DNA of 64,000 bases from Gammaproteobacteria bacterium. GTDB lineage: Bacteria; Pseudomonadota; Gammaproteobacteria; Eutrophobiales; Eutrophobiaceae. The stretch covers positions 133,333 through 197,332 of the forward strand of contig OZ241853.1 of the NCBI GenBank assembly GCA_965202685.1, read 5' to 3'. The notes under the pieces are model-generated. The model did not search any database, was not told the origin of the DNA, and was given only the letters and a program-made list of their open reading frames with translations. Made by a program: the position numbers and the translations under genes. Shown in pieces: positions 13,626 to 59,606 of the stretch (the stretch's first letter is position 1; each line of letters starts with the position of its first letter).

Positions 13626-13635
13626 CAAACAATCA

Positions 13636-14229
13636 TCAGGCCCTTGCCAGTCCCGCTTCCTGCAGGTGTTCGCGCGCGAAATCGATGCGGTCGTTGCCCC
13701 AGAAGATCTGCTCGCCGATGACAAAAGTCGGCACGCCGATGACCCCCAGGGCCTGGGCCTCGCGCCAGTTGTCTTCCAGGGCCTGGCGCCGGGCCGGGTC
13801 TTCCAGGGCCGCCATGACTTCCGCGGCGGCCAAACCCGCCCGAGCCGCCGCCGCGCACAGGATGTCCGGCTGGCCGATGTCCTGCCCCTGGCCCCATTCG
13901 GCGTGGGTCGTCTCTAACACATAATCCCGCAAGCAACCTTTCTCTTCCGCCAACAGGGAAACGACGCCCGCCGGCGTCGGGTCTGTGGTGATAGGAGGCG
14001 GGATGCAGGGGATGTTCATGCGCCGGGCCCAGCGGGCCACATCCTGCCGGGTGAGAGGCACCTTGACCTTGGCCCGCTCCGGGGGGGAGCGGCCATCCCA
14101 GCCGCCCAAGGGGCGCCAGAGGAGCTCAACCCGATAATCATCCACCAGGCTGAACAGGGTCTTGCTGGCCAAATAGCAATAGGGGCTGCGAAAATTGAAA
14201 AACAACTTCAGCGCAACGCTTTGCGCCAT
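13636..14229 (-). CDS. 2-hydroxychromene-2-carboxylate isomerase-like DsbA-family protein
   Basis: 197-aa ORF with N-terminal FNFRSPYCY (thioredoxin-like CxxC-derived motif) and C-terminal GVIGVPTFVIGEQIFWG. Confidence 0.65.
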   Translation of the reverse strand: MAQSVALKLFFNFRSPYCYLASKTLFSLVDDYRVELLWRPLGGWDGRSPPERAKVKVPLTRQDVARWARRMNIPCIPPPITTDPTPAGVVSLLAEEKGCLRDYVLETTHAEWGQGQDIGQPDILCAAAARAGLAAAEVMAALEDPARRQALEDNWREAQALGVIGVPTFVIGEQIFWGNDRIDFAREHLQEAGLARA

Positions 14230-31819: not shown

Positions 31820-33817
31820 ATGTTTGCAATGACAAATCGCATTGGAGAACGGATCAGGTTCCATGGCTTGGCGTTAGCCTTGTTGTTCTTGTTTTTGATA
31901 GCGGGCCTCGCCATCGTCGATGACTACGGCGTTTCGATAGACACAGGCAACCAACGGGCTATCGCCCTCAGCACCTTCAACTATGTCCTGCATGACAACC
32001 CAGGCCGGTTGCGAGTGGACCCTGAGCGCTTCTACGGCGCCGCCTTCGAGGCGCCCCTGTTCCTGTTGACGGAACAGGTCCTGGGGCTGGAAGACCCGCG
32101 CCATGTCTATTTGGCCCGCCATGCCCTGACCCATCTGTTTTTTCTGCTTGGCGGGTTCTGTTGCTATCTGCTGGCGTTTCGATTGTCCGGCGACCGGCTG
32201 GCGGCGCTGTTGGTCATGTTGCTGTTCCTGCTGTCCCCGCGCCTGTACGCCCATTCCTTCTTCAACAGCAAGGATGCGCCGTTCGCCAGCGCCTTCGTCA
32301 TGGCCTTGCTCTTTGCGAGCCACGCCTTTGACAGGGACTCGGTGGGAGCCTATCGGTGGTGCGGGGCGGCGGCGGGGCTTCTCGTCAACCTGCGCATCAT
32401 GGGCGTGGTTCTGTTTGCCGTCGTGTTGGTCTTTCGAGCCTGGGCCTGGTTCCGGGCCGAGGGATGCGCGGCGCGGCGGCGGGCGGCGACCACCACTGGG
32501 GTCTTCGCCCTGTGGGGGGTCGTTGTCTTGTTCATCAGCCTGCCTTATCTCTGGGGCGACCCCGTAGGGCGGCTGGCGGAAATGCCAGCGGTGCTGAGCG
32601 ATCATCCAAAAGTGAACCTGGTATTGTTTGGGGGCGAAGTATTCTCCAGCACGGCCCTGCCTTGGGATTACTTTCCGCGCTGGTTCGCCATCAGCCAGCC
32701 GCCGGTGACCTTGTTGCTGGGGCTGTTGGGCATGGGGGCCCTGGGCCTTGCCGCTGGAGGCGTCTTCCGACGCGGCGCAGGCGCCGGGCCGGGCGCGGCG
32801 TGGGGCGCCGCCGAGTTGCGCTTCGGCGTCTTGCTTGCGGCCTGCTTTGCGTTGCCCCTGGTTGCCGTCGTTCTGCTACGGCCCAATATCAGAACCGGCT
32901 GGCGGTATTTCCATTTCCTGCACGGGCCTTTTTGCCTGCTGGCGACCTTCGCCCTGATGGGATTGCGCCAGCTGTCGGCGCGGGGGTTGCAAAGAAAATG
33001 GCTCGGCGGCGCGGCGTGCGCGCTGACAGCGGCGGGGCTGGGCGTCGTGGCGGTCCAGATGGCGCAGATCCATCCCCACCAATATCTCTATTTCAACTTT
33101 TTTGTGGACCGCAAAACCCCGGAACAGCTGCGAACCCGCTACCCCATGGATTACTGGAACATGGCGATGCGACAGGGCTATGAACTCGCCCTGCGCCACG
33201 CGCCTTCCTCTCCCGCCATCAACCTGAAGTCCTTAGCCACGCCCATAGCAAACCCCTTGCAAGGCCTCGTCCGCAATGTGGGGATCCTGCCCGCCACGGC
33301 CCGGGCCCGGCTCACTTACGACCCGGCCCGAAACCCGGACTTTTATCTGGGCGGTTTCGCGCTGGACGATTATTTCCCCCCCGTTCTCCACCAAATCAAG
33401 GTCTATAACAACACCATTATGACCGTGGCCACGCCGGACCTGGCCCGAGTTGACCCGGCGGTGGCGGACGAGTACCGCGCCTTGCTGCAGGCGGCGACGG
33501 CGGGGGAACCGGTGGCGCGGGAGAGCGGCTATGAAGTGTACCGGCACGGCCGGCGGCTGGCGTGGGTGAAGGAGGGTTGCGGGCCGGGCGAGTTGTTGCG
33601 CCTGTTCCGGCTGGCATTCTATCCAGTGGATGCGAGCTATGTGTCCCCGCACCGCCAACGGCAGGGCAACAATGTCAAGCTGGTCTATGGGGCGCGGCTG
33701 GACGGCAAATGCCTGGGGGCAGCGTGGTTGCCGGAGTACGCGGTGTCCCGGGTGCGGTTGCGCCAGCGGTCGGATGAGGGGGGGAAGTTGTGGGAAACCG
33801 AATTCCACCTTTTTTAG
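31820..33817 (+). CDS. array paralogue 3 (665 aa from ATG at 31820; ORF open from 31736)
   Basis: MFAMTNRIGERIRFHG... preceded by ctaaaatataatggcggcATG. Its C-terminal domain is near-identical to that of paralogue 4. Confidence 0.75.
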   Translation: MFAMTNRIGERIRFHGLALALLFLFLIAGLAIVDDYGVSIDTGNQRAIALSTFNYVLHDNPGRLRVDPERFYGAAFEAPLFLLTEQVLGLEDPRHVYLARHALTHLFFLLGGFCCYLLAFRLSGDRLAALLVMLLFLLSPRLYAHSFFNSKDAPFASAFVMALLFASHAFDRDSVGAYRWCGAAAGLLVNLRIMGVVLFAVVLVFRAWAWFRAEGCAARRRAATTTGVFALWGVVVLFISLPYLWGDPVGRLAEMPAVLSDHPKVNLVLFGGEVFSSTALPWDYFPRWFAISQPPVTLLLGLLGMGALGLAAGGVFRRGAGAGPGAAWGAAELRFGVLLAACFALPLVAVVLLRPNIRTGWRYFHFLHGPFCLLATFALMGLRQLSARGLQRKWLGGAACALTAAGLGVVAVQMAQIHPHQYLYFNFFVDRKTPEQLRTRYPMDYWNMAMRQGYELALRHAPSSPAINLKSLATPIANPLQGLVRNVGILPATARARLTYDPARNPDFYLGGFALDDYFPPVLHQIKVYNNTIMTVATPDLARVDPAVADEYRALLQAATAGEPVARESGYEVYRHGRRLAWVKEGCGPGELLRLFRLAFYPVDASYVSPHRQRQGNNVKLVYGARLDGKCLGAAWLPEYAVSRVRLRQRSDEGGKLWETEFHLF

Positions 33818-33937
33818 CTTGTTAGTTTTCCGCCATGCGTCCTGGCGTTTCTTTGCTCGGGCGGTCATGTGCTATTTGCACACTCCCTTCCTCGCTCATC
33901 ACGCCAGTTGCCTGACGAAAAACTTCCGTCGCTAAAA
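33812..33937 (+). repeat. R unit
   Basis: Starts at the stop codon of paralogue 3 (ttttTAGcttgttag). Confidence 0.7.
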
Positions 33938-34326: not shown

Positions 34327-36330
34327 ATGGCGGCAATGACCAATTACATTGGAGAACGGGCCCGATTCCATAGTCTAGCGCTGATCGTATGCGCTTTGTT
34401 CCTCCTTGCGGGCCTCGCCATCGTCGATAACTACGGCGTTTCGATAGACACAGGCAACCAACGGCATATCGCCCTCAGCACCCTCAACTATGTCCTGCAT
34501 GACGACCCAGGCCGGTTGCGAGTGGCCGTTGACCGCTTCACCGGCGCCGCCTTCGAGGCGCCCCTGCTGCTGTTGACGGAACGGGTCCTGGGGCTGGAAG
34601 ACCCGCGCCATGTCTATTTGGCCCGCCATGTCCTGACGCACCTGTTTTTTCTAATCGGCGGGTTCTGTTGCTATCTGTTGGCGTTTCGATTGTCCGGCGA
34701 CCGGCTGATCGCGCTGTTGGTCATGGCGCTGTTCCTCCTGTCCCCGCGCATCTACGCTCATTCCTTCTTCAACAGCAAGGATCCGGTGGCTGCCAGCGCC
34801 TTCGTCATGGCCTTGCTCGTTGTGTGTCGCGCCTTTGACAAGGACTCGGTGGGGGCCTATCGGTGGTGCGGGGCAATGGCGGGACTTGTCGTCAACCTGC
34901 GCATCTTGGGCATCGCCCTGTTTGCCATCGTGTTGGTCTTTCAGGCCTGGGCCTGGTTCCGGGCCGGGGGGGGCGCGGCGCGGCGGCGGGTTGTAGTGAC
35001 CACTGGCGCTTTCGCCCTGTGGGGAATCGTTGTCTTGTTCATCAGCCTGCCCTATCTCTGGGGCGACCCCGCAGGGCGGCTGGCGGAAATGGTCGAGATT
35101 ATGCGCGATCATCCTACCGTTTATCTGGTATTGTTCCGGGGGCAGGTGTTTTCCGGCGCGGCGTTGCCTTGGGACTATATGTTGCGCTGGTTCGCCATCA
35201 GCCAGCCGCCGGTGACCTTGTTGTTGGGGCTGTTGGGCCTAGTGGCCCTGGGCCTTGCCGCCAGGGGCGTCGTCAGACGCGGCGCAGGCGCCGGGCCCGG
35301 GCCGGGCGCGGCGTGGGGCGCCGCCGAGTTGCGCCTCGGCATATTGCTCGCAACCTGCTTTGCGTTGCCCCTGGTTGCCTTTGCGCTGTTGCGACCCACC
35401 TCCCTCAATGACTGGCGGCATTTTTATTTCCTGCACGGGCCTTTTTGCCTGCTGGCGACCTTCGCCCTGATGGGGTTGCGCCAATTGCCGGCGCGGGGGT
35501 TGCAAAGAAAATGGCTCGGCGGCGCGGCCTGCGCGCTGACAGCGGCGGGGCTGGGCGTCGTGGCGGTCCAGATGGCGCAGATCCATCCCCACCAATATCT
35601 CTATTTCAACTTTTTTGTGGACCGCAAAACGCCGGAACAGTTGCGAGCCCGCTACTCTATGGATTACTGGAACATGGCGATGCGACAGGGCTATGAACTC
35701 GCCCTGCGCCATGCGCCTTCCTCTCCCGCCATCAACCTGAAATCCTTAGCCACGCCCATAGGAAACCCCTTGCAGGGCCTCGTCCGCAATGTGGGGATCC
35801 TGCCCGCCACGGCCCGAGCCCGGCTCACTTACGACCCGGCCCGAAACCCGGACTTCTATCTGGGCGGTTTCTCGTTGGACGATTATTTCCCCCCCGTTCT
35901 CCACCAAATCAAGGTCTATAACAACACCATTATGACCGTGGCCACGCCGGATTTGTCCCGAGTTGACCCGGCGGTGGCGGACGAGTACCGCGCCTTGCTT
36001 CAGACAGCGACGGCGGGGGAACCGGTGGCGCGGGAGAGCGGCTATGAAGTGTACCGGCGCGGCTCGCAGTTAGCATGGGTGAAAGAGGGATGCGGGCCGG
36101 GCGAGTTGTTGCGCCTGTTCCGGCTGGCGTTCTATCCAGTGGATGCGAGCTATGTGTCCCCGCACCGCCAACGGCAGGGCAACAATGTCAGGCTGGTCTA
36201 TGGGGCGCGGCTGGACGGCAAGTGCCTGGGGGCGGCGCGGTTGCCGGAGTACGCGGTGTCCCGGGTGCGGTTGCGCCAGCGGTCGGATGAGGGGGGGAAG
36301 CTATGGGAAACCGAATTCCACCTTTTTTAG
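34327..36330 (+). CDS. array paralogue 4 (667 aa; ORF open from 34156)
   Basis: MAAMTNYIGERARFHS... Its central ~1 kb is near-identical to paralogue 14. Its C-terminal domain is near-identical to paralogue 3. Confidence 0.75.
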   Translation: MAAMTNYIGERARFHSLALIVCALFLLAGLAIVDNYGVSIDTGNQRHIALSTLNYVLHDDPGRLRVAVDRFTGAAFEAPLLLLTERVLGLEDPRHVYLARHVLTHLFFLIGGFCCYLLAFRLSGDRLIALLVMALFLLSPRIYAHSFFNSKDPVAASAFVMALLVVCRAFDKDSVGAYRWCGAMAGLVVNLRILGIALFAIVLVFQAWAWFRAGGGAARRRVVVTTGAFALWGIVVLFISLPYLWGDPAGRLAEMVEIMRDHPTVYLVLFRGQVFSGAALPWDYMLRWFAISQPPVTLLLGLLGLVALGLAARGVVRRGAGAGPGPGAAWGAAELRLGILLATCFALPLVAFALLRPTSLNDWRHFYFLHGPFCLLATFALMGLRQLPARGLQRKWLGGAACALTAAGLGVVAVQMAQIHPHQYLYFNFFVDRKTPEQLRARYSMDYWNMAMRQGYELALRHAPSSPAINLKSLATPIGNPLQGLVRNVGILPATARARLTYDPARNPDFYLGGFSLDDYFPPVLHQIKVYNNTIMTVATPDLSRVDPAVADEYRALLQTATAGEPVARESGYEVYRRGSQLAWVKEGCGPGELLRLFRLAFYPVDASYVSPHRQRQGNNVRLVYGARLDGKCLGAARLPEYAVSRVRLRQRSDEGGKLWETEFHLF

Positions 36331-36355
36331 CTTGTTACATCCGCCATGCAACCTA

Positions 36356-36483
36356 GCGCGACACCCGAGGGCATAGCTTGGGGCAGGGCTTTTTACGACA
36401 CGCTGTGAATCCATCCCTGGACGCTCTCGGCGCGGCCATCCAGGCCGCGCAGGGTCTTAAAAGCCCTGCCCCAAGCTACGCCC
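36356..36483 (-). repeat. PAL element copy 4
   Basis: gcgcgacacccgagggcatagcttggggcagggcttttt...aaaagccctgccccaagctacgcc. Confidence 0.8.
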
Positions 36484-36503
36484 ATGCCCTTATCCCACAA
36501 CTA

Positions 36504-36629
36504 TTTTAGCGACGGAAGTTTTTCGTTAGGCAACTGGCGCGACAAGTGAAGGAAGGAGTGTGCATAAAGCACATGACTGACTGAACGCGGAAGCGCCAGG
36601 CAGAATAACGGAAAACTAACAAGCTAAAA
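36504..36629 (-). repeat. R unit (R2 variant), inverted
   Basis: ttttagcgacggaagtttttcgttaggcaactggcgcgacaagtgaagg...ggaaaactaacaagctaaaa. Confidence 0.65.
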
Positions 36630-36707
36630 TGAAAAACTTCCGTCGCTAAAACACACTCGCAGGCTCCGTTATCCCGCCTGGTGGATTGACCGCTATATAA
36701 TGGTGGC

Positions 36708-38687
36708 ATGTCCACAATAACAAGCCGCATTGGAGAACGGGTGCGGTTCCATCGCTTAGCGTTGATTGCATGGTGCCTGTTTTTGGTTACGGGCCTCGCC
36801 ATCGTCGATGACTACGGCGTCGCGCCGGATGCGGCAAACCAGTTTCTTACCTCCATCAACACCGTCAACTATGTTCTGCATGGGGACCAAACCCTGTTGC
36901 AAACCGTTGACCGCTTTTACGGCTCCGCTTTCGAGTTGCCCCTGTTGCTGTTGATGGAATGGGGCCTGGGGCTGGAAGACCCGCGCCATATCTATTTGGC
37001 CCGCCATGTCCTGATGCATCTGTTTTTTCTGCTTGGCGGGTTCTGTTGCTATCTGTTGGCGTTTCGATTGTCCGGCGACCGGCTGATCGCGCTGTTGGTC
37101 ATGTTGCTGTTTCTCCTGTCCCCGCGCCTCTACGCCCATTCCTTCTTCAACAGCAAGGATGCGGTGTTCGCCAGCGCCTTCGTCATGGCCTTGCTCTTTG
37201 CGAGCCGCGCCTTTGACAAGGACTCGGTGGGGGCCTATCGGTGGTGCGGGGCGGCGGCGGGGCTTCTCGTCAACCTGCGCGTCATGGGCGTGGTTCTGTT
37301 TGCCGTCGTGTTGGTCTTTCGGGCCTGGGCCTGGTTCCGGGCCGGGGGGGGCGCGGCGCGGCGGCGGGTTGTGGCGGCCACTGGGGTCTTTGCCCTGTGG
37401 GGGGGCCTTGTCTTGTTCATCAGCCTGCCCTACCTCTGGGGCGACCCCATAGGGCGGCTGGCGGAAATGCCAGCGGTGCTGGCCGATCATCCTATCGTTC
37501 TTCATCAATTGTTCCGCGGTCAGGCGTTTTCCAGCGCGGCATTGCCTTGGGACTACCTTCCGCGCTGGTTCGCCATCAGCCAGCCGCCGGTGACCTTATT
37601 GTTGGGCCTGTTGGGCCTAGTGGCCTTGGGCCTTGCCGCTGGGGGCGTCGTCAGGCGCGGCGCGGGCGCCGGGCCGGGGCGCGGTTTGGGCGCCGCCGAG
37701 TTGCGCTTCGGCGTCCTGCTGGCAACCTGCTTCGCGTTGCCCCTAGTTGCCTTTGTCCTGTTGCGGCCCAACACCCTCCATGGCTGGCGGCATTTTTATT
37801 TTCTGCATGGGCCTTTTTGCCTGCTGGCGACCTTCGCCCTGATGGGGTTGCGCCAGCTGTCGGTTCGGGGGTTGCGAAAAGGATGGCTCGGCGGCGCGGC
37901 GTGCGCGCTGACAGCGGCGGGGCTGGGCGCAGCGGCGGTGGAGATGACGCAGATCCATCCCCATCAGTATCTCTATTTCAACTTTCTGGTGGACCGGAAG
38001 ACCCCGGAAGGGTTGCGCGAGCGCTACGAGACGGATTATTGGAACATGATGTTGCGACAGGGCTATGAGTGGCTCCTGAAAGAGACCCCGGAGGCCGCCA
38101 TCAACATGGTGCCGCGGAGAGTTGAGGCGTTGGCGAACCTCAATCGCAATGTGCAGATTCTCCCCCCGGCGGCCCGCAACCGGTTGACCTACGATCCGAA
38201 ACGCGACCCGGATTTCTATGTAGGCGGAAGCGGAAGCATAAGGCAAAGCCTCGAAGAACCTTTCCCTCCCGTTCTCCATCGGTTCAAGGTCTATAACAAC
38301 ACGATGTTGACCATTTCCACGCCGGATTTGTCCCGGGTTGACCCGGCGGTGGCGGATGCGTATCGGGCTTTGCATTGGACAGCGACGGCGGGGGCGCCAA
38401 CGGCGCGGGCGGGCGGCTATGAAGTCCACCGGCACGGCTCGCGGCTGGCGTGGGTGAAGGAGGCTTGCGAGCCTGGGGCGCTGAGGCGCAAGTTCCAGCT
38501 GGCTCTTTACCCGGCGGACGCGGGCCGTTTGCCGACCCATCGCCAGAAATGGGGCTACTTTACAATCAGAGCCTCTGGGGTGCGGTTTGACGGCAAGTGC
38601 CTGGGGGCGCGACGACTGCCGGATTTCGCCCTAACCCGGATTCGCCTGGGGCAAAAGGGGAAGTGGGAAGTGGAGGTGCCTTTTTAG
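36708..38687 (+). CDS. array paralogue 5 (659 aa)
   Basis: MSTITSRIGERVRFHR... preceded by ggattgaccgctatataatggtggcATG. Confidence 0.75.
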   Translation: MSTITSRIGERVRFHRLALIAWCLFLVTGLAIVDDYGVAPDAANQFLTSINTVNYVLHGDQTLLQTVDRFYGSAFELPLLLLMEWGLGLEDPRHIYLARHVLMHLFFLLGGFCCYLLAFRLSGDRLIALLVMLLFLLSPRLYAHSFFNSKDAVFASAFVMALLFASRAFDKDSVGAYRWCGAAAGLLVNLRVMGVVLFAVVLVFRAWAWFRAGGGAARRRVVAATGVFALWGGLVLFISLPYLWGDPIGRLAEMPAVLADHPIVLHQLFRGQAFSSAALPWDYLPRWFAISQPPVTLLLGLLGLVALGLAAGGVVRRGAGAGPGRGLGAAELRFGVLLATCFALPLVAFVLLRPNTLHGWRHFYFLHGPFCLLATFALMGLRQLSVRGLRKGWLGGAACALTAAGLGAAAVEMTQIHPHQYLYFNFLVDRKTPEGLRERYETDYWNMMLRQGYEWLLKETPEAAINMVPRRVEALANLNRNVQILPPAARNRLTYDPKRDPDFYVGGSGSIRQSLEEPFPPVLHRFKVYNNTMLTISTPDLSRVDPAVADAYRALHWTATAGAPTARAGGYEVHRHGSRLAWVKEACEPGALRRKFQLALYPADAGRLPTHRQKWGYFTIRASGVRFDGKCLGARRLPDFALTRIRLGQKGKWEVEVPF

Positions 38688-38773: not shown

Positions 38774-38900
38774 TTTTTAGCGACGGAAGTTTTTCGTCAG
38801 GCAAGCGGCATGATGAGCGCGGGAGGGAGTGTATATTAAATACATGACCGACCGCGTGAAGAAATGCCGCGATGCATGGCGGAAAACTAACAAGCTAAAA
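38774..38900 (-). repeat. R unit, inverted, fused in-frame to paralogue 6
   Basis: ttttagcgacggaagtttttcgtcagg...gcatggcggaaaactaacaagctaaaa is directly joined to cgggcccgattccat of the gene. Confidence 0.7.
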
Positions 38901-40832
38901 CGGGCCCGATTCCATGGCTTGGCGTTGAGCGTGTGGGCCTTGTTCCTGATTACGGGCCTCGCCATCGTCGATGACTACAGCGTCGCGCCGGATGCGGCAG
39001 ACCAGCATGGTATCGGCAACAACACCCTCAACTATGTCCTGCATGACGACCAAACCCTTTTGCGAACCCATGACCGCTTCTACGGCGCCGCCTTCGAGGC
39101 GCCCCTGTTCCTATTGACGGAACGGGTCCTGGGGCTGGAAGACCCGCGCCATGTCTATCTGACCCGCCATGTCCTGACCCACCTGTTTTTTCTAATCGGC
39201 GGGTTCTGTTGCTATCTGTTGGCGCGGCGCTTGTCCGGCGACCGGCTGGTCGCGTTGTTGGTCATGTTGTTGTTCCTGCTGTCCCCGCGTCTCTACGCCC
39301 ATTCCTTCTTCAATGTCAGGGATCCAATGTTCGCCAGCGCCTTCGTCATGGCCCTGCTCTTTGTGAGCCGCGCCTTTGACAGGGACTCGGTGGGGGCCTA
39401 TCGGTGGGGCGGGATGGCAGTGGGACTTCTCGTCCACCTGCGCATCATGGGCGTGGTTCTGTTTGCCATCGTGTTGGTCTTTCGGGCCTGGGCCTGGTTT
39501 CGGACCGAAGGGGGCGCGGCGCGGCGGCGGATTGTGGCAACCACTGGCGCTTTCGCCCTGTGGGGGGGCCTTGTCTTGTTCGTCGGCCTGCCCTATCTCT
39601 GGGGCGACCCCGCAGGGCGGCTTTCAGAATATTGGATGGTGTTGGCCGATCATCCTGTCGTTCAACGCGAACTGTTCCGGGGTCAGGCGTTTTCCGGCGC
39701 GGCGTTGCCTTGGAATTATATGTTGCACTGGTTCGCCATCAGCCAGCCGCCGGTGACCTTGTTGTTGGGTCTGTTGGGCTTGGTGGCCTTGGGCCTTGCC
39801 ACTGGGGGCGTCGTCAGACGCGGCGCGGGCGCGGCATGGGGGGGTGCCGAATTGCGATTTGGCGTCTTGCTCGCAACCTGCTTCGTGTTGCCCCTGCTCG
39901 CCTTTGTCCTGTTGCGGCCCAACACCATCAATGGCTGGCGACATTTTTATTTCCTGCACGGGCCTTTTTGCCTGCTGGCGACCTTCGCCCTGATGGGGTT
40001 GCGCCAGCTGTCGGTTCAGGGGTTGCGAAAAAAATGGGTTGGCGGCGCGGCTGGCGCGCTGACAGCGGCGGGACTGGGCGCGACGGCGCTGGAGATGGCG
40101 CAGATCCATCCTAACCAGCATCTCTATTTCAACTTTTTTGTGGACCGAAAGACCCCGGAACGGCTAAACGAACGCTACGAGACGGATTACTGGAACATGA
40201 TGTTGCGGCAAGGGTATGAACACATCCTGCGGCAAGCGCCCTCTTCCACCATTAACATGAGGCCGCGAGCGTCAGCGAACAACCGCTATGTGCAGATCCT
40301 GCCGGCGGCGATCCGGAGCCGGTTCATCTACGACCCTGTTCGGGATCCGGATTTCTATCTAGTAAGAAACGCCGGAATTCCGCCGCCAGGCGCGCTTAAG
40401 GACTCTTTTCCCCCCGTCCTCCACCGGTTCAAGGTCTATAACAACACGGTGTTGACCGTATCCACGCCGGATTTGTCCCGGGTTGACCCGGCGGTGGCGG
40501 ATGAGTATCGGGTCTTGCATCGGGCGGCGACAGCGGGGGAACCGGTGGCTCGCGGGGGAGGCTTCGATGTGCGCCTGCATGGCAACCGGCTGGCGTGGGT
40601 GAAGGAGGCTTGCGAGCCTGGGGCGTTGATGCATCCGTTCCGGCTCAGGCTTTATCCGGCGAACGCGGGCCGTTTGCTGGCCCACCACCGGAAACGGGGC
40701 TACTTTACAATCAGCGCCAGCGGGGTGCGGTTTGACGGCAAGTGCCTGGGGGCGGCGCGGTTGCCGGATTTCGCCCTGGACCGGGTTCGCCTAGGGCAAC
40801 AAGGGAGGTGGGAAGTTGACATCCCTTTTTAG
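38829..40832 (+). CDS. array paralogue 6, 5'-end replaced (ORF starts inside an inverted R unit; no own promoter/ATG)
   Basis: The translation MYIKYMTDRVKKCRDAWRKTNKLK is derived from the R unit up to the junction 38900/38901. From RARFHG onward the protein is a normal paralogue. Confidence 0.55.
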   Translation: MYIKYMTDRVKKCRDAWRKTNKLKRARFHGLALSVWALFLITGLAIVDDYSVAPDAADQHGIGNNTLNYVLHDDQTLLRTHDRFYGAAFEAPLFLLTERVLGLEDPRHVYLTRHVLTHLFFLIGGFCCYLLARRLSGDRLVALLVMLLFLLSPRLYAHSFFNVRDPMFASAFVMALLFVSRAFDRDSVGAYRWGGMAVGLLVHLRIMGVVLFAIVLVFRAWAWFRTEGGAARRRIVATTGAFALWGGLVLFVGLPYLWGDPAGRLSEYWMVLADHPVVQRELFRGQAFSGAALPWNYMLHWFAISQPPVTLLLGLLGLVALGLATGGVVRRGAGAAWGGAELRFGVLLATCFVLPLLAFVLLRPNTINGWRHFYFLHGPFCLLATFALMGLRQLSVQGLRKKWVGGAAGALTAAGLGATALEMAQIHPNQHLYFNFFVDRKTPERLNERYETDYWNMMLRQGYEHILRQAPSSTINMRPRASANNRYVQILPAAIRSRFIYDPVRDPDFYLVRNAGIPPPGALKDSFPPVLHRFKVYNNTVLTVSTPDLSRVDPAVADEYRVLHRAATAGEPVARGGGFDVRLHGNRLAWVKEACEPGALMHPFRLRLYPANAGRLLAHHRKRGYFTISASGVRFDGKCLGAARLPDFALDRVRLGQQGRWEVDIPF

Positions 40833-41319: not shown

Positions 41320-43302
41320 ATGGTGGCTATGATAAATCACATTGGAGAACAAGCCCGGTTCCATCGCTTAGCGTTGATTGCATGGTCCCTGTTCTTAATC
41401 GTGGGCCTCGCCATCGTCGATGACTACGGCGTCTCGTATGATGCGAAAGAGCAGTTTCTTACCTCCATCAACACCCTCAACTATGTCCTGCATGGGGACC
41501 AAACCCTGTTGCAAACCCATAACCGCTTCTACGGCGCCGCTTTCGAGTTGTCGCTGCTGCTGTTGATGGAAGGGGTCCTGGGGCTGGAAGACCCGCGCCA
41601 TGTCTATTTGACCCGCCATGTCCTGACGCACTTGTTGTTTCTAATCGGCGGGTTCTGTTGCTATCTGCTGGCGCGGCGCTTGTCCGGCGACCGGCTGGTG
41701 GCGTTGTTGGTCATGGCACTGTTCCTGCTGTCCCCGCGCCTGTACGCCCATTCCTTCTTCAACAGCAAGGATGCGGTGTTCGCCAGCGCCTTCGTCATGG
41801 CCTTGCTCTTTGCGAGCCGCGCCTTTGACAGGGACTCGTTGGGGGCCTATCGGTGGTGCGGGGCGGCGGCGGGGCTTCTCATCCACCTGCGCGTCATGGG
41901 CGTGGTTCTGTTTGCCGTCATGTTGGTCTTTCGGGCCTGGGCCTGGTTTCGGGCCGGGGGGGACGCGGCGCGGCGGCGGGTGGCGGCGACCGCTGGCGCT
42001 TTCGCCCTGTGGGGTGTCCTTGTCTTGTTCATCAGCCTGCCCTATCTCTGGGGCGACCCCGCAGGGCGGCTGGCGGAAATGGTCGTGGTGTTGGCCGACC
42101 ATCCTACGGTTCTTCATCAATTGTTCCGCGGTCAAGTGTTTTCCAGCGCGGCGTTGCCTTGGGATTATGTGTTGCGCTGGTTCGCCATCAGCCAGCCGCC
42201 GGTGACCTTGTTGTTGGGGCTGTTGGGCCTGGGAGCTTTGGGCCTTGCCGCTGGGGGCGTCGTCAGACGCGGCGCGGGCGCCGGGCCGGGGCGTGGCTTG
42301 GGGGGCGCCGAGTTGCGCTTCGGCGTCTTGCTCGCAACCTGCTTCGTGTTGCCCCTGCTCGCCTTTATCCTGTTGCGGCCTAACACCATCAATGGCTGGC
42401 GGCATTTTTATTTCCTGCACGGGCCTTTTTGCCTGCTGGCGACCTTCGCCCTGATGGGGTTGCGCCAGTTGCCGGCGAGGGGGGCGCGAAAAGGATGGGT
42501 TGGGGGCGCGGCTTGCGCATTGACAGTGGCGGGACTGGGCGCGGCGGCATTGGAGATGGCGCAAATCCATCCCCACCAATATCTTTATTTCAACTTTTTA
42601 GCGGACAGGAAGACCCCGGAAGGGTTGCGCGAGCGCTACGAGACATACTGGAACATGATGTTGCGGCAAGGGTATGAACACATCCTGCGGCAAGGACCCG
42701 CTTCCACCATTAACATGAGGCCGCGAGTGCTTCACTCGCGGGCTGACATCAACCGCAATGTGGAGATTCTCCCGGCGGCGGCCCGAAGCCGGTTCACCTA
42801 CGACCCCGCTCGGGACCCGGATTTCTACCTGGCAAGAAACGCCGGAATTCCGCCGCTAGGCGCGCTTAAGGACTCTTTTCCTCCCGTCCTCCACCGGTTC
42901 AAGGTCTATAACAACACAATGATGACAGTTTCCACGCCGGATTTGTCCCGGGTTGACCCGGCGGTGGCGGATGAGTATCGGGCTTTGCATCGGGCGGCGA
43001 CGGCGGGGGAACCAGCGGCCCGGGCGGGGGGCTTCGATGCGCACCTGCATGGCAACCGGCTGGCGTGGGTAAAGGAGGCTTGCGAGCCTGGGGCGTTGAT
43101 GTCGCCGTTCCGGCTCAGGCTTTACCCGGCGGACGCGGGCCGTTTGCCGACCCATCACCAGAAACGGGGCTACTTTACAATCAGCGCCTCTGGGGTGCGG
43201 TTTGACGGCAAGTGCCTGGGGGCGGCGCGGTTGCCGGATTTCGCCCTGGCCCGGATTCGCCTGGGGCAAGCAGGGAGGTGGGAAGTTGACATCCCCTTTT
43301 AG
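41320..43302 (+). CDS. array paralogue 7 (660 aa)
   Basis: MVAMINHIGEQARFHR... preceded by an inverted R terminal fragment and gggtaatatggcgacattATG. Confidence 0.75.
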   Translation: MVAMINHIGEQARFHRLALIAWSLFLIVGLAIVDDYGVSYDAKEQFLTSINTLNYVLHGDQTLLQTHNRFYGAAFELSLLLLMEGVLGLEDPRHVYLTRHVLTHLLFLIGGFCCYLLARRLSGDRLVALLVMALFLLSPRLYAHSFFNSKDAVFASAFVMALLFASRAFDRDSLGAYRWCGAAAGLLIHLRVMGVVLFAVMLVFRAWAWFRAGGDAARRRVAATAGAFALWGVLVLFISLPYLWGDPAGRLAEMVVVLADHPTVLHQLFRGQVFSSAALPWDYVLRWFAISQPPVTLLLGLLGLGALGLAAGGVVRRGAGAGPGRGLGGAELRFGVLLATCFVLPLLAFILLRPNTINGWRHFYFLHGPFCLLATFALMGLRQLPARGARKGWVGGAACALTVAGLGAAALEMAQIHPHQYLYFNFLADRKTPEGLRERYETYWNMMLRQGYEHILRQGPASTINMRPRVLHSRADINRNVEILPAAARSRFTYDPARDPDFYLARNAGIPPLGALKDSFPPVLHRFKVYNNTMMTVSTPDLSRVDPAVADEYRALHRAATAGEPAARAGGFDAHLHGNRLAWVKEACEPGALMSPFRLRLYPADAGRLPTHHQKRGYFTISASGVRFDGKCLGAARLPDFALARIRLGQAGRWEVDIPF

Positions 43303-43694: not shown

Positions 43695-45695
43695 ATGGCG
43701 GCAACGATAAATCGCATTGGAGAACGGATCCGGTTCCATCGCTTAGCGTTGATTGCGGGCGCACTATTCTTAATCGTGGGCCTCGCCATCGTCGATGACT
43801 ACGGCGTCTCGCCGGATGCGGGAGACCAGTTTCTTATCACCATCGACACCCTCAACTATGTCCTGCATGGGAACCCAGGCGAGTTAGGAGTGCTTGCTCA
43901 CCGCTTCACTGGCGTCGCCTTCGAGGCGCCCCTGTTGCTGTTGATGGAATGGGTCCTGGGGCTGGAAGACCCGCGCCATATCTATTTAACCCGCCATGTC
44001 CTGATGCACCTGTTTTTTCTGCTTGGCGGGTTCTGTTGCTATCTGTTGGCGTTTCGCTTGTCCGGCGACCGGCTGGTCGCGCTGTTGGTCATGTTGCTGT
44101 TCCTGTTGTCCCCGCGCCTCTACGCCCATTCCTTCTTCAACAGCAAGGATCCGGTGGCTGCCAGCGCCTTCGTCATGGCCTTGCTCTTTGCGAGCCGCGC
44201 CTTTGACAAGGACTCCTTGGGGGCCTACCGGTGGTGCGGGGCAATGGCGGGACTTGTCGTCAACCTGCGCATCTTGGGCATCGCCCTGTTTGCCATCGTG
44301 TTGGTCTTTCAGGCCTGGGCCTGGTTCCAGGCCGGGGGGGGCGCGGCGCGCCGACAGGTGGCAACGGCCACTGGGGTTTTTGCCCTGTGGGGTGTCCTTG
44401 TCTTGTTCATCAGCCTGCCCTATCTCTGGGGCGACCCCGCAGGGCGGCTGGCGGAAATGGTCGCGATTATGCGCGATCATCCTACCGTTCATCGAGAATT
44501 GTTCCGGGGTCAAGTGTTTTCCAGCGCGGCGTTGCCTTGGGACTATATGTTGCGCTGGTTCGCCATCAGCCAGCCGCCGGTGACCTTGTTGTTGGGGTTG
44601 TTGGGCCTGGGAGCCTTGGGTCTCGCCGCTGGGGGCGTCGTCAGACGCGGCGCGGACGCCGGGCCGGGCGCGGCATGGGGCGCCGCCGAGTTGCGCTTCG
44701 GCGTCCTGCTCGCAACCTGCTTTGCGTTGCCCATGGTTGCCTTTGCGCTGTTGCGACCCACCTCCCTCACTGGCTGGCGGCATTTTTATTTCCTGCACGG
44801 GCCTTTTTGCCTGTTGGCGACCTTCGCCCTGATGAGGTTGCGCCAGCTGCCGGTTCGGGGGGTGCGAAAAGGATGGCTCGGCGGCGCGGCTTGCGCACTG
44901 ACGGCGGCGGGGCTGGGCGCGGCGGCGTTGGAGATGGCGCAGATCCATCCCCACCAATATCTTTATTTCAACTTTTTAGCGGACCGGAAGACCCCGGAAC
45001 GGTTGCGCGAGCGCTACGAGACAGATTACTGGAACATGGTGTTGCGACAGGGCTATGAATGGATCCTGAAAGAAACCCCGGAGGCCGCCATCAACATGAG
45101 GCCGCGGGGAGTTGATGCGTTGGCGGACATCAACCATAATGTGCAGATTCTCCCCCCGGCGGCCCGCAACCGCTTCACTTACGATCCGAAACGCGACCCG
45201 GATTTCTATTTAGGCGGAAGCGGAAGCGGAAACACAAACACAAGGCAAGGCCCCCTGCTCAAAGATCCTTTCCCTCCCGTTCTTCACCGGTTCAAGGTCT
45301 ATAACAACACGATGTTGACCGTGTCCACGCCGGATTTGTCCCGGGTTGACCCGGCGATGGCGGATACGTATCGGGCTTTGCATCGGGCGGCGACAGCAAG
45401 GGAACCGGCGGCCCGGGCGGGGGGCTTCGATGTGCACCTGCATGGCGACCGGCTGGCGTGGGTGAAGGAGGCTTGCGAGCCCGGGGCGCTGAGGCGCGAG
45501 TTCCGGCTGGCTCTTTACCCGGCGGACGCGAGCCTCTTGCTGGCCCATCACCAGAAACGGGGCTACTTTACAATCAGCGCCTCTGGGGTGCGATTTGACG
45601 GCAAGTGCCTGGGGGCGGCGCGGTTGCCGGACTTCGCCTTAACCCGGATTCGCCTGGGGCAACGAGGGAAGTGGGAAGTGGAGGTGCCGCTATAA
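43695..45695 (+). CDS. array paralogue 8 (666 aa)
   Basis: MAATINRIGERIRFHR... The stop TAA lies inside the TATAAT of the next copy (ccgcTATAAt). Confidence 0.75.
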   Translation: MAATINRIGERIRFHRLALIAGALFLIVGLAIVDDYGVSPDAGDQFLITIDTLNYVLHGNPGELGVLAHRFTGVAFEAPLLLLMEWVLGLEDPRHIYLTRHVLMHLFFLLGGFCCYLLAFRLSGDRLVALLVMLLFLLSPRLYAHSFFNSKDPVAASAFVMALLFASRAFDKDSLGAYRWCGAMAGLVVNLRILGIALFAIVLVFQAWAWFQAGGGAARRQVATATGVFALWGVLVLFISLPYLWGDPAGRLAEMVAIMRDHPTVHRELFRGQVFSSAALPWDYMLRWFAISQPPVTLLLGLLGLGALGLAAGGVVRRGADAGPGAAWGAAELRFGVLLATCFALPMVAFALLRPTSLTGWRHFYFLHGPFCLLATFALMRLRQLPVRGVRKGWLGGAACALTAAGLGAAALEMAQIHPHQYLYFNFLADRKTPERLRERYETDYWNMVLRQGYEWILKETPEAAINMRPRGVDALADINHNVQILPPAARNRFTYDPKRDPDFYLGGSGSGNTNTRQGPLLKDPFPPVLHRFKVYNNTMLTVSTPDLSRVDPAMADTYRALHRAATAREPAARAGGFDVHLHGDRLAWVKEACEPGALRREFRLALYPADASLLLAHHQKRGYFTISASGVRFDGKCLGAARLPDFALTRIRLGQRGKWEVEVPL

Positions 45696-45704
45696 TATGG
45701 CGGC

Positions 45705-47729
45705 ATGGCGGCAATGACAAATCGCATTGGAGAACGGGCCCGATTCCATAGTCTGGCACTGGTCGTGTGGTGCCTGTTTTTGATTACGGGCCTCGTCATC
45801 GTCGATGACTACGGCGTCTCGTGGGATACGGAAATCCAGCGTTTTGTCGCCATCAACACCGTCAACTATGTCCTGCATAGCGACCCTGCCCTGTTACACA
45901 ATGACGTTGATCACTTCTACGGCGCCGCCTTCGAGTTGCCCCTGTCCCTGTTGACGGAACGGATCCTGGGGCTAGAAGACCTGCGCCATGTCTATTTGGC
46001 CCGCTATGTCCTGACGCACCTGTTGTTTCTAATCGGCGGGTTCTGTTGCTATCTGTTGACGCGGCGCTTGTCCGGCGACCGGCTGATCGCGCTGTTAGTC
46101 ATGCTACTGTTCCTGCTGTCCCCGCGTCTTTACGCCCATTCCTTTTTCGACACCAAGGATGCGGTGTTCGCCAGCGCCTTCGTCATGGCCTTGCTCGTTG
46201 TGAGTTGCGCCTTTGACAGGGATTCGGTGGGGGCCTATCGGGGGTGCGGGGCGGCGGCGGGGCTTCTCATCAACCTGCGCATCATGGGCGTGGTTCTGTT
46301 TGCCGTCGTGTTGGTCTTTCGGACCTGGGCCTGGTTCCGGGCCGAGGGGAGCGCGGCGCGCCAACGGATTGTGGCGACCACTGGGGTCTTTGCCCTGTGG
46401 GGGGCCTTGTCTTTGTTCATCAGCCTGCCCTATCTCTGGGGCGACCCCGCAGGGCGTCTTTCAGAATATTGGATAGTGTCGGCCGACCATCCTAGCTACC
46501 ACGGCCACCAATTGTTCCGGGGTCAAGTGTTTTCCAGCGCGGCGTTGCCTTGGGATTATGTGTTGCACTGGTTCGTCATCAGCCAGCCGCCGGTGACCTT
46601 GTTGTTGGGTCTGTTGGGCCTAGTGGCCCTGGGCCTTGCCGCTGGGGGCGTCGTCAGACGCGGCGCAGGCGCCGGGCCGGGCGCGGCATGGGGCGCCGCC
46701 GAGTTGCGCTTCGGCGTCCTGCTGGCAACCTGCTTTGCGTTGCCCCTGGTTGCCTTTGTCCTGTTGCGGCCTAACACCATCAATGGCTGGCGGCATTTTT
46801 ATTTCCTGCACGGACCTTTTTGCCTGCTGGCGACCTTCGCCCTGATGGGGTTGCGCCAGCTGTCGGTTCGGGGGTTGCGAAAAGAATGGGTTGGCAGCGC
46901 GGCTTGCGCGCTGACGGCGGCGGGGCTGATCGTCGTGGCGGTCCAGGCGGGGCTGATCGTCGTGGCGGTCCAGATGGCGCGACTCCATCCCCATCAATAT
47001 CTCTATTTCAACTTCTTGGCGGACCGGAAGACCCCGGAACGGTTGCGCGAGCGCTACGAGATGGATTACTGGAACATGATGTGGCGACAGGGCTATGAGT
47101 GGCTCCTGAAAGAGACCCCGGAGGCCGCCATCAACATGAGGCCGCGGAGAGTTGATGCGTTGGCGAACATCAACCGCAATGTGCAGATCCTCGCCCCAGC
47201 GGCCCGCAACCGGTTCACCTACGACCCGAAACGCGACCCAGATTTCTATTTAGGCGGAAGCGGAAACACAAACACAAGGCAAAACCCCCTGCTCAAAGAT
47301 CCTTTCCCTCCCGTTCTTCACCGGTTCAAGGTCTATAACAACACGATGTTGACCGTGTCCACGCCGGATTTGTCCCGGGTTGACCCGGCGGTGGCGGATG
47401 AGTATCGGGCTTTGCATCGGGCGGCGACGGCGGGGGAACCGGCGGCGCGGGCGGGGGGCTTCGATGCGCACCTGCATGGCGACCGGCTGGCGTGGGTGAA
47501 GGAGGCTTGCGAGCCCGGGGCGCTGAGGCGCAAGTTCCAGCTGGCTCTTTACCCGGCGGACGCGGGCCGTTTGCCGGCCCAGCACCGGAAACGGGGCTAT
47601 TTTACAATCAGCGCCTCTGGGGTGCGGTTTGATGGCAAGTGCCTGGGGGCGGCGCGGTTGCCGGACTTCGCCCTAACCCGGATTCGCCTGGGGCAGCCAG
47701 GGAAGTGGGAAGTTGACATCCCCTTTTAG
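45705..47729 (+). CDS. array paralogue 9 (674 aa) with an in-frame 27-bp tandem duplication
   Basis: MAAMTNRIGERARFHS... The duplicated peptide is AGLIVVAVQ (46934-46987). Confidence 0.75.
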   Translation: MAAMTNRIGERARFHSLALVVWCLFLITGLVIVDDYGVSWDTEIQRFVAINTVNYVLHSDPALLHNDVDHFYGAAFELPLSLLTERILGLEDLRHVYLARYVLTHLLFLIGGFCCYLLTRRLSGDRLIALLVMLLFLLSPRLYAHSFFDTKDAVFASAFVMALLVVSCAFDRDSVGAYRGCGAAAGLLINLRIMGVVLFAVVLVFRTWAWFRAEGSAARQRIVATTGVFALWGALSLFISLPYLWGDPAGRLSEYWIVSADHPSYHGHQLFRGQVFSSAALPWDYVLHWFVISQPPVTLLLGLLGLVALGLAAGGVVRRGAGAGPGAAWGAAELRFGVLLATCFALPLVAFVLLRPNTINGWRHFYFLHGPFCLLATFALMGLRQLSVRGLRKEWVGSAACALTAAGLIVVAVQAGLIVVAVQMARLHPHQYLYFNFLADRKTPERLRERYEMDYWNMMWRQGYEWLLKETPEAAINMRPRRVDALANINRNVQILAPAARNRFTYDPKRDPDFYLGGSGNTNTRQNPLLKDPFPPVLHRFKVYNNTMLTVSTPDLSRVDPAVADEYRALHRAATAGEPAARAGGFDAHLHGDRLAWVKEACEPGALRRKFQLALYPADAGRLPAQHRKRGYFTISASGVRFDGKCLGAARLPDFALTRIRLGQPGKWEVDIPF

Positions 47730-48136: not shown

Positions 48137-50119
48137 ATGGCGGCAATGATAAATCGCATTAGAGAACGGGCCCGATTTCATAGTTTGGCACTGAGCGTGT
48201 GGGCCTTGTTTTTGATAGCGGGCCTCGCCATCGTCGATGACTACGGCGTCTCGTGGGATGCGGGAGCCCAGCGTGGCATCGCCCTCAGCACCCTCAACTA
48301 TGTCCTGCATGATGACCTAGGCCGGTTGCGATCGGTCATTGACCGCTTCTACGGCGTCGCCTTCGAGGCACCCCTGTTGCTGTTGACGGAACGGGTCCTG
48401 GGGCTGGAAGACCCGCGCCATGTCTATCTGACCCGCCATGTCCTGACGCACCTGTGGTTTCTAATTGGCGGGTTCTGTTGCTATCTGCTGGCGTTTCGAT
48501 TGTCTGGCGACCGGCTGGTCGCGCTGTTGGTCATGGCGCTGTTCCTGCTGTCCCCACGCCTGTACGCCCATTCCTTCTTCAACAGCAAGGACCCAGTGTT
48601 CGCCAGCGCCTTCGTCATGGCCCTGCTCGTTGTGAGCCGCGCCTTTGACAAGGACTCGGTGGGGGCCTATCGCTGGTGCGGGGCGGCAGCGGGGCTTCTT
48701 GTCAGCCTGCGCATCATGGGCGTGGTTCTGTTTGCCGCCGTGTTGGTCTTTCAGGCCTGGGCCTGGTTTCGGGCCGAGGGGGGCGCGGCGCGGCGGCGGG
48801 TGGCGGCGACCACTGGGGTCTTCGCCCTGTGGGGAATCGTTGTCTTGTTCATCAGTCTGCCCTACCTCTGGGGCGACCCCATAGGGCGGCTTTCAGAATA
48901 TTGGGTGGCGTTGACCGACCATCCTGACTACCACGGCCACCTATTGTTCTGGGGTCAGGCGTTTTCCGGCGGGGCGTTGCCTTGGGACCATGTGTTGCGC
49001 TGGTTCGCCATCAGCCAGCCGCCGGTGACCTTGTTGTTGGGATTGTTGGGCCTAGTGGCCCTGGGCCTTGCCGCTGGGGGCGTCGTCAGACGCGGCGCGG
49101 GCGCCGGGCCGGGCGCGGCATGGGGGGGGGGGGGCGAGTTGCGCTTCGGCGTCTTGCTCGCAACCTGTTTTGCGTTGCCCCTGCTCGCCTTTGTTCTGTT
49201 GCGGCCCACCACCCTCGTCGATAGCTGGCGGCATTTTTATTTCCTGCACGGGCCTTTTTGCCTGCTGGCGACCTTCGCCCTGATGGGGGTGCGTCAGCTG
49301 TCGGCGCGGGGGTTGCAAAGAAGATGGCTCGGCGGCGCGGCGTGCGCGCTGACAGCGGCGGGGCTAGGCGTCACGGCCTTTGAAATGGCGCAGATCCATC
49401 CTAACCAGCACCTCTATTTCAACTTTTTGGCGGACCGGAAGACCCCGGAACGGCTACAGGCCCGCCACACCGTGGATTACTCCCTGGCGATGCGACAGGG
49501 TTACGAATACCTGCTAAGACAAACCCCGGCCGCCGCCATTAACCTGGAAAAGAAACACTTCCTCACGAGACTCGTTGGGGGCATATTCATTCTTCCCGCG
49601 GCAGACCATCGCCGGTTCACCTACGACCGCAGTCGCGACCCGGATTTCTATTTCAGCGGAAGCGGAAACACAAGCGTAAAGATAAGCTTCCTGACCAAAG
49701 ATCCTTTCCCTCCCGTTCTTCACCAGTTCAAGGTCTATAACAACACCATGATGACCGTTTCCACGCCGGATTTGTCCCGGGTTGACCCGGCGGTGGCGAA
49801 TGAGTATCGGGCTTTGCATCGGGCGGCGACGGCGGGGGAACCGGTGACGCGGGAGAGCGGCTATGAAGTCCACCGGCACGGCTCGCGGCTGGCGTGGGTG
49901 AAGGAGGCTTGCGAGCCTGGGGAATTGATGCATCCGTTCCGGCTCAGGGTTTACCCGGCGGACGCGGGCCGTTTGCCTAGCGGGGGCTACTTCGGACTCA
50001 GCGTCCGCGGGGTGCGGTTTGATGGCAAGTGCCTGGGGGCGGCGTGGTTGCCGGACTTCGCCTTAACCCGGATTCGCCTGGGGCAATCAGGGAAGTGGGA
50101 AGCCGACATCCCCTTTTAG
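48137..50119 (+). CDS. array paralogue 10 (660 aa); contains a 13-nt G tract
   Basis: MAAMINRIRERARFHS... G13 at 49122-49134 is in frame (AWGGGGELRFG). Confidence 0.75.
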   Translation: MAAMINRIRERARFHSLALSVWALFLIAGLAIVDDYGVSWDAGAQRGIALSTLNYVLHDDLGRLRSVIDRFYGVAFEAPLLLLTERVLGLEDPRHVYLTRHVLTHLWFLIGGFCCYLLAFRLSGDRLVALLVMALFLLSPRLYAHSFFNSKDPVFASAFVMALLVVSRAFDKDSVGAYRWCGAAAGLLVSLRIMGVVLFAAVLVFQAWAWFRAEGGAARRRVAATTGVFALWGIVVLFISLPYLWGDPIGRLSEYWVALTDHPDYHGHLLFWGQAFSGGALPWDHVLRWFAISQPPVTLLLGLLGLVALGLAAGGVVRRGAGAGPGAAWGGGGELRFGVLLATCFALPLLAFVLLRPTTLVDSWRHFYFLHGPFCLLATFALMGVRQLSARGLQRRWLGGAACALTAAGLGVTAFEMAQIHPNQHLYFNFLADRKTPERLQARHTVDYSLAMRQGYEYLLRQTPAAAINLEKKHFLTRLVGGIFILPAADHRRFTYDRSRDPDFYFSGSGNTSVKISFLTKDPFPPVLHQFKVYNNTMMTVSTPDLSRVDPAVANEYRALHRAATAGEPVTRESGYEVHRHGSRLAWVKEACEPGELMHPFRLRVYPADAGRLPSGGYFGLSVRGVRFDGKCLGAAWLPDFALTRIRLGQSGKWEADIPF

Positions 50120-59535: not shown

Positions 59536-59606
59536 CTTGTTACATCCGCCATGCATCGCGGCATTTCTTCACTCGGTCAGTCATGTATTTCATGCACACT
59601 CCTTCC

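Follow-up and report, generated by a model that had tools for sequence, protein, structure and literature searches.

Interlocus gene conversion is established in several bacterial gene families, among them the outer-membrane protein genes of Helicobacter, the opa genes of Neisseria and the PE/PPE genes of mycobacteria. Other variable loci depend on homopolymer tracts, as do the phase-variable contingency loci of glycosyltransferases in Neisseria, Haemophilus and Campylobacter, or on invertible switches and shufflons such as fimS, the invertons of Bacteroides and the R64 shufflon. Gene conversion between tandem paralogues is textbook knowledge, and as a mechanism it is not new. PMC11127046 describes GT-C enzymes that, together with two partner proteins, add sugars outside the cytoplasm. 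The system considered here is a tandem array of at least 16 genes predicted to encode GT-C glycosyltransferases, carried on a 64,000-nucleotide stretch of an uncultured environmental gammaproteobacterium (GenBank assembly GCA_965202685.1, contig OZ241853.1, positions 133,333 to 197,332), which is referred to below as the window. No description of such a GT-C glycosyltransferase array was found in the literature searched. The array very probably evolves by duplication and loss of copies together with frequent interlocus gene conversion.

The array occupies positions 27532-64000 of the plus strand and consists of 16 same-strand paralogues of about 660 amino acids each, arranged head to tail, as seen from the open reading frame (ORF) list, the translations and the alignment. 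The copies are 78-90% identical to one another in pairwise nucleotide comparisons, and the protein of copy 4 is 70-87% identical to the other array proteins. Copy 4 (34327-36330, +) is a mosaic with its own 5' end, a middle of the type found in copy 14 (57550-59535, +) and a 3' third of the type found in copy 3. The alignment of copies 4 and 14 keeps a fixed offset of 23223 bp, and their identity changes along the gene. It is 80% over the first 140 bp (34327-34466, 28 differences), 93% over the next 103 bp (34467-34569, seven differences), 96.4% over 169 bp (34570-34738, six differences) and 99.9% over a core of 692 bp (34739-35430) that holds a single difference; one more difference lies in the following 53 bp (35431-35483, 98%), after which identity falls to 82% (35484-35710, 40 differences in 227 bp). 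The converted block of copy 4 is thus 34570-35483 (+), with eight differences from copy 14 in 914 bp (99.1%), and the donor block of copy 14 is 57793-58706 (+), with its core at 57962-58653. The longest exact match run between the two copies is 503 bp. Both ends of the block are sharp and lie in family-conserved segments where synonymous divergence is lowest.

The initial annotation of this DNA had described near-identity of copies 4 and 14 over about 1 kb. The near-identity is real, but its proposed limits of 34650-35710 are not, as 48 differences fall within the 1061 bp of that interval, and 40 of these lie in the final 227 bp. Nor do the antisense ORFs at 34651-35112 and 57874-58335 translate identically, as had been claimed; they differ at 2 of 153 residues. 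The C-terminal affinities proposed for the two copies hold: positions 35484-36330 of copy 4 are 95.4% identical at the nucleotide level to the 3' third of copy 3 (32971-33817, +), with which they evolve in concert, and the 3' third of copy 14 belongs with those of copies 12 and 13 (and also 15). Inside the 4/14 block, copy 3 reaches only 86% identity with copy 4. The middle block of copy 8 (43938-44845, +) is an older member of the 4/14 block type and is 92.5% identical to that of copy 4.

Several analyses within the window point the same way. For copies 4 and 14, synonymous divergence (dS) is as low as 0.020 inside the block but 0.29 in the 5' and 0.65 in the 3' flank; taken over all 105 pairs, the family median for the block stands at 0.247. 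Because the identity of the block reaches synonymous sites, purifying selection on the protein cannot explain it. Neighbour-joining trees (200 bootstraps) built for separate blocks conflict with one another: the middle block groups copies 4 and 14, and copies 4, 8 and 14, each with 100% bootstrap, and the 3' third yields the groups (3,4), (6,7), (5,8,9), (1,10,11) and (12,13,14,15), again each with 100% bootstrap. A PHI-type statistic computed over 624 informative sites was 0.566, against a permuted mean of 0.690 (standard deviation 0.004; z = -31), and none of 1000 permutations gave a value as low. The fraction of incompatible site pairs climbs with distance, from 0.39 at less than 20 bp to 0.65 beyond 800 bp. 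A GENECONV-style run test on 937 variable sites found an unbroken run of 233 concordant sites between copies 4 and 14, whereas the longest run in 500 site permutations, taken over all pairs, was 56. Ten pairs were significant array-wide, and 50 of the 105 pairs reached a pairwise P of 0.01 or less; the significant tracts other than the 4/14 block are short, about 50-150 bp. The dS values, block trees, PHI statistic and run test all support the earlier proposal of gene conversion among copies over independent divergence. That proposal had named block-wise phylogenies and a PHI test as checks, and these gave incongruent trees and a recombination signal.

A third check, comparison across isolates, could be made with two related assemblies, and it revealed both ongoing shuffling and the direction of the copy 4/14 event. 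A homologue search returned 745 relatives, many of which lie on a closed 2.97-Mb contig (ENA ERZ25068319; strain C) and on a 41-kb contig (ERZ25070167). The left flank of the array, compared over 2463 bp, is 97.97% identical between the window and strain C. Strain C has 16 copies in the same order; it is without copy 10 and has one more copy past the position at which the window ends, and its array is followed by genes for a GntR regulator and a TonB receptor. Strain B covers copies 1 to 9 and has one additional copy upstream. The difference in copy number between strains points to unequal crossing-over.

Positional orthologues of the window and strain C are 90.4-99.8% identical, which is far less even than the 98% of the flank. 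The origin of this unevenness is most easily read in the 4/14 block, for which window copies are denoted W and closed-genome copies C, C13 being the orthologue of copy 14. W14 and C13 are 99.3% identical, and W04 is 99.1% identical to W14 (99.9% in the core) and 98.7% identical to C13, but only 95.3% identical to its own orthologue, C04; C04 and C13 are 95.5% identical. Copy 14 has therefore remained unchanged relative to its orthologue while copy 4 has become closer to copy 14 than to its own orthologue, so copy 14 is the donor and copy 4 the recipient. The conversion of copy 4 by copy 14 postdates the split from a relative whose flanking genes are 98% identical. The block type shared by copies 4, 14 and 8 is present in three independent assemblies with graded identities of 95-99%, and before the recent event the three copies were already alike in it at 92-95% (copy 3 stands at 86%), from which repeated exchange among the same partners follows. 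Within single strains, the 3' thirds of copies 3 and 4 are 95.4, 94.9 and 97.4% identical, compared with 92.3-95.3% for orthologues between strains. Identity within a strain at or above that between strains is a signature of concerted evolution. Along the whole array, about a fifth of the 100-bp orthologue windows (258 of 1202) have a closer paralogue in the same genome; a window was flagged when the orthologue was at least 6% diverged and a paralogue in either of the two genomes was at least 4% closer. These comparisons show non-reciprocal transfer of tracts between paralogues that is recurrent and ongoing and that spans distances of up to 23 kb. They also show that most conversion tracts measure 100-400 bp and that the 0.9-kb block is an exception, being both the largest and the most recent.

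Other explanations of the mosaic pattern have to be weighed against gene conversion. Independent divergence of the copies, with the shared block as no more than a strongly constrained part of the protein, has practically no probability left. Within the family, conservation is greatest in the membrane core, where the ratio of nonsynonymous to synonymous divergence (dN/dS) is 0.2-0.4, but constraint is already refuted by the synonymous sites of the block (dS of 0.020 for copies 4 and 14 versus 0.247 for other pairs); the lower identity of copy 3 in the same block and the conflicting block trees also speak against it. It is very improbable that the block is an artefact of assembly or polishing, in which long metagenomic reads from one paralogue would have corrupted the other's consensus. 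The flanks of the block inside these 2-kb genes are unique and diverged, and long reads would span them; the block type recurs in three independent assemblies; and the block ends sharply in family-conserved segments. These points have to be set against the nature of the data, since the related assemblies are long-read metagenome contigs, one with 6.8x coverage according to its name, in which repeats and homopolymers are error-prone.

The uneven divergence of orthologues along the array, from 0.2% to 9.6% compared with 2% in the flank and up to 44% in some segments, would be expected if the mosaicism came mainly from homologous recombination between strains, that is, from import of alleles in place of exchange within a genome. 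This is improbable as the main source, because the closest sequence in the flagged windows is a paralogue of the same genome, the block of copy 4 matches copy 14 of its own genome, and copies 3 and 4 resemble each other within a strain at least as much as orthologues do between strains. A programmed cassette system of the pilE/pilS or vlsE type, in which one copy is expressed and the others serve as silent donors, has a similar layout: copies are numerous, variable segments sit within conserved frameworks, and transfer is non-reciprocal. Such a system is highly unlikely here. Full-length uninterrupted frames are found in 14 of the 15 copies wholly inside the window (the exception, copy 11, is cured by removing one G), and copy 16 is truncated by the window end with its frame open up to that point. 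An ATG start lies within a shared N-terminal motif in 12 of the 16 copies; in copies 3 and 12 the shared-motif ATG sits within longer open frames, and the starts of copies 6 and 13 are uncertain. The copies are under purifying selection overall, with a median dN/dS of 0.4-0.6, none of them stands out as a distinct expression site, and tracts pass between ordinary copies.

Interlocus gene conversion can be set out as a sequence of events. The array evolves by tandem duplication and loss and by non-reciprocal homologous recombination between copies, probably through the general RecA pathway, that is, by ordinary homologous recombination. Copies 4, 14 and 8 carried a common block type earlier, acquired in older exchanges, and some 0.75-0.9 kb of copy 14 then replaced the matching part of copy 4, 23 kb distant. 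Neighbouring copies 3 and 4 homogenise their 3' thirds. The outcome is copies that are mosaics of one another. The predicted enzymes would move a sugar from a polyprenyl-phosphate carrier to acceptors in the periplasm, and the first outer loop, the loop at residues 253-271 and the C-terminal beta-sandwich domain are candidate determinants of acceptor specificity. If so, shuffling might create new combinations of specificity determinants for glycosylation of the cell surface.

Variation is concentrated in some of these parts. The first loop (residues 38-53) has 15 types in the 16 copies and residues 253-271 have 14 types, while residues 58-72 fall into two main types (QTLLQTH or PGRLRV) and the positions around residue 253 read either AEM or SEYW; all four pairings of the latter two sets of types occur. 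The groups formed by the C-terminal domains track the physical adjacency of the copies. The initial annotation had seen a limited set of blocks in varied combinations, a description that fits residues 58-72, the AEM/SEYW site and the C-terminal groups but not loop 1, where nearly every copy has its own type; the loop-1 peptides that it quoted are present, in copies 1, 2 and 5. Along the gene, dS spans a roughly ten-fold range (0.11-1.06) and is lowest in the conserved segments at the start and end of the 4/14 block. Positive selection in the first loop was considered and set aside, as dN/dS is about 1.0 there with a wide interval (0.5-1.85) and a 30-codon window with a value of 1.47 was not significant.

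The array proteins are predicted to be multi-pass membrane glycosyltransferases of the GT-C fold. An NCBIfam search with an array protein gave no match, but many close homologues, as well as a clade from Dehalococcoidia that is 40% identical, have recorded hits to PMT_2 (PF13231) or PMT. An AlphaFold2 model based on an alignment with both clades has a mean predicted local distance difference test score (pLDDT) of 72.4 and a predicted template modelling score (pTM) of 0.68; a model from close homologues alone reached a pLDDT of 45.9, and adding the 40%-identical clade repaired it. The top 29 Foldseek matches to the model are all GT-C proteins. An IVDDYG motif directly follows the first membrane helix, and its aspartate D34, invariant in 71 sequences, would occupy the position expected of the catalytic acid, judging by likeness to solved GT-C enzymes. 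Copy 4 reads DNYG at this site (34426-34440, residues 34-38) while all other copies read DDYG, and DNYG is also found in the copy-4 orthologues of both related strains.

The wider family comprises 761 clusters at 50% identity (E <= 1e-30), and the clade of the window amounts to roughly one of these clusters. Apart from two weak matches, a scan of reference genomes yielded only a genome from Dehalococcoidia, at 40% identity. The C-terminal module belongs to no Pfam family. In the relatives from Dehalococcoidia, which are 800-1160 residues long, the module is repeated two to three times, and some library relatives show as many as 10 distinct matching stretches. Three loci of Dehalococcoidia CBDBCU010000002.1 were examined (L002, 1406-12628; L003, 9899-16217; L004, 9527-13018), and at two of the three loci fetched tandem sets of two to three family members occur among the long ORFs. 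A multi-copy tandem layout may be a general habit of this glycosyltransferase family.

A number of points weigh against the interpretation of the array as a set of GT-C enzymes diversified by gene conversion. Conversion is read from assembled genomes, and some of the excess divergence of orthologues could come from allelic recombination between strains. The activity of the enzymes, their sugar donor and acceptor and the expression of the copies are predictions. The window copies score 17.6-19.3 bits against Pfam PMT_2, under the curated cut-off of 26.1; single-sequence and profile searches against solved structures gave no sequence match; and the window showed no gene for a partner such as a polyprenyl-phosphate sugar synthase or a flippase. 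In the first loop selection is relaxed or diversifying, and diversifying selection is not demonstrated, given the dN/dS interval of 0.5-1.85.

The first eight copies begin at positions 27532, 29515, 31820, 34327, 36708, 38829, 41320 and 43695, and copies 9 to 16 begin at 45705, 48137, 50296, 52986, 55164, 57550, 59961 and 62309 (all on the plus strand, from the ORF list and the alignment). In copies 6 (38829-38915) and 13 (55164-55225) the usual N-terminus (M.AMTNRIGE) is replaced and the start codon is uncertain. The codons for RARFH are joined directly to the end of an inverted spacer module in both, and the junction of about 40 bp is the same. The orthologue of copy 6 in the related genome has a normal N-terminus, and the copy-6 junction has therefore been recently acquired. 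Copy 9 contains an exact 27-bp tandem duplication (46920-46973; AGLIVVAVQ twice) in a predicted membrane helix that is absent from its orthologue in the related genome. Long antisense or out-of-frame ORFs lie over most copies, including those on the minus strand at 31874-32605, 33233-33868, 36756-37508, 41641-42579, 43986-44957, 54294-54977 and 58462-59556, plus others. They are best taken as artefacts, because their recurrence follows from the similarity of the copies and the high G+C content.

The spacers, considered between 27170 and 62308, are themselves mosaics of two modules, A and B, which occur in both orientations; within the window they are confined to the array and absent from the first 27 kb. 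Module A is a 115-nucleotide hairpin (-79 kcal/mol, z = -11) present in 10 copies, at 27260, 31573, 34129, 36395, 41106, 43375, 47928, 52709, 57392 and 59803. Module B is a 120-nucleotide unit with about 30 full or partial copies. The number, position and orientation of the modules differ between the window and strain C, and module A has the opposite orientation at three of the five spacers that carry it in both. The junctions of these orientation differences are not those of clean two-site inversions. The 13-mer TTTTAGCTTGTTA occurs 30 times (27350-62293; 19 on the plus and 11 on the minus strand), compared with 0.01 expected. In the plus orientation it provides the TAG stop codon of nine copies and begins no more than three bases past the stop in four more, and in the minus orientation it is often found immediately upstream of a start codon. 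As a result of this placement, spacers and genes alike are flanked by inverted repeats. In the spacer between copies 4 and 5 (36331-36707), modules A and B lie between inverted copies of the 13-mer, and the A+B segment runs in the opposite direction to that seen in both related strains. The spacers between copies 1 and 2 (29506-29514) and between copies 8 and 9 (45696-45704) are only 9 bp long and the others measure 141-685 bp; in strain C, copies 1 and 2 are 437 bp apart and are separated by spacer modules. No RNA family was found by Rfam across the whole window, the spacer modules had no match in JGI metagenome contigs, and a scan for promoter and terminator consensus sequences found no enrichment in the spacers.

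Copies 10 and 11 contain long G tracts. Copy 11 (50296-52300) has a frameshift at a 22-G homopolymer (51287-51308) that splits its reading frame, and removal of one G restores an intact protein of 667 residues. Copy 10 has 13 G at the matching site (49122-49134), and the strain C orthologue of copy 11 has 17 G and an open frame. The copy-11 tract could be phase variable, or it could be a homopolymer assembly error, as tract lengths are unreliable in such assemblies. The same strain C orthologue was also considered as a simple hybrid from unequal crossing-over between copies 10 and 11, which was ruled out; it is mostly copy-11-like with a copy-10-like patch.

The spacers and the poly-G tracts raise the question of whether the array is a dedicated locus for diversification of surface glycosylation, in which shuffling of specificity loops and the C-terminal domain would be combined with spacer modules that flip or move, turning single copies on or off, and with a hypermutable poly-G tract. 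This seems doubtful, and the observations that suggest it are confined to the spacers and the poly-G tract. If it were true, a population would contain many combinations of active GT-C enzymes and might, for example, evade phages that bind glycans. A scan of the 20 upstream ORFs turned up no recombinase or reverse transcriptase, nor any other dedicated machinery. The 27 kb upstream of the array consist of ordinary chromosomal genes, which include an aromatic meta-cleavage pathway, a DUF1302/DUF1329/MMPL/BNR cluster, a glutathione transferase, FolE2 and a polyprenyl synthetase. The closest named matches to FolE2 come from metagenome-assembled genomes of Gammaproteobacteria, at about 75% identity, which places the host in an uncultured lineage of Pseudomonadota. 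Between a gene of the fumarylacetoacetate-hydrolase family and the DUF1329 cluster lies an ORF of 785 residues on the minus strand (11367-13724) whose sole Pfam hits are weak matches to 4Fe-4S dicluster domains.

The array offers a clean natural example of gene conversion, since donor, recipient, tract limits and relative timing can be read by means of two related genomes with the same array. An array of 16-17 GT-C copies in which the presumed acceptor-facing parts differ in almost every copy points to a large and fast-changing repertoire of surface-sugar modifications. If the copies do differ in specificity, they would provide a system for the study of how GT-C enzymes encode acceptor specificity and of surface variation in environmental bacteria.

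Comparison with described systems shows what this array shares with each of them. The spacers recall invertible switches in that their segments are flanked by inverted copies of the 13-mer and in that the hairpin module is found in the opposite orientation at three of the five shared spacers; unlike in those switches and in shufflons, no recombinase gene was seen in the ORFs scanned, the junctions are not clean two-site inversions and inversion never involves the array genes. In a way that recalls contingency loci, an intragenic tract of 22 G breaks the frame of copy 11 and is 17 G and in frame in a related strain, but long tracts are limited to copies 10 and 11 and their lengths come from assemblies in which homopolymers are unreliable. 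The pattern of pilE/pilS and vlsE, one expression site accompanied by truncated or promoterless silent cassettes, is not found in the array. With the PMT (GT39), ArnT (GT83) and GtrC-type enzymes the array proteins have in common the predicted fold, a presumably equivalent acidic motif after helix 1 and a C-terminal domain past the membrane part; they differ in being encoded by multiple tandem copies instead of a single gene, with no partner genes seen nearby, in having no sequence match to solved GT-C enzymes and in scoring under the Pfam threshold. The gene families of Helicobacter, Neisseria and mycobacteria that undergo interlocus conversion resemble the array in their short non-reciprocal tracts, in their mosaic alleles, in tract ends that lie in conserved segments and in paralogues that are closer within a strain than orthologues are between strains. 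The array differs from these families in that it encodes predicted GT-C enzymes and not surface antigens, and in that its 16-17 copies stand together in one head-to-tail array in an uncultured environmental gammaproteobacterium.

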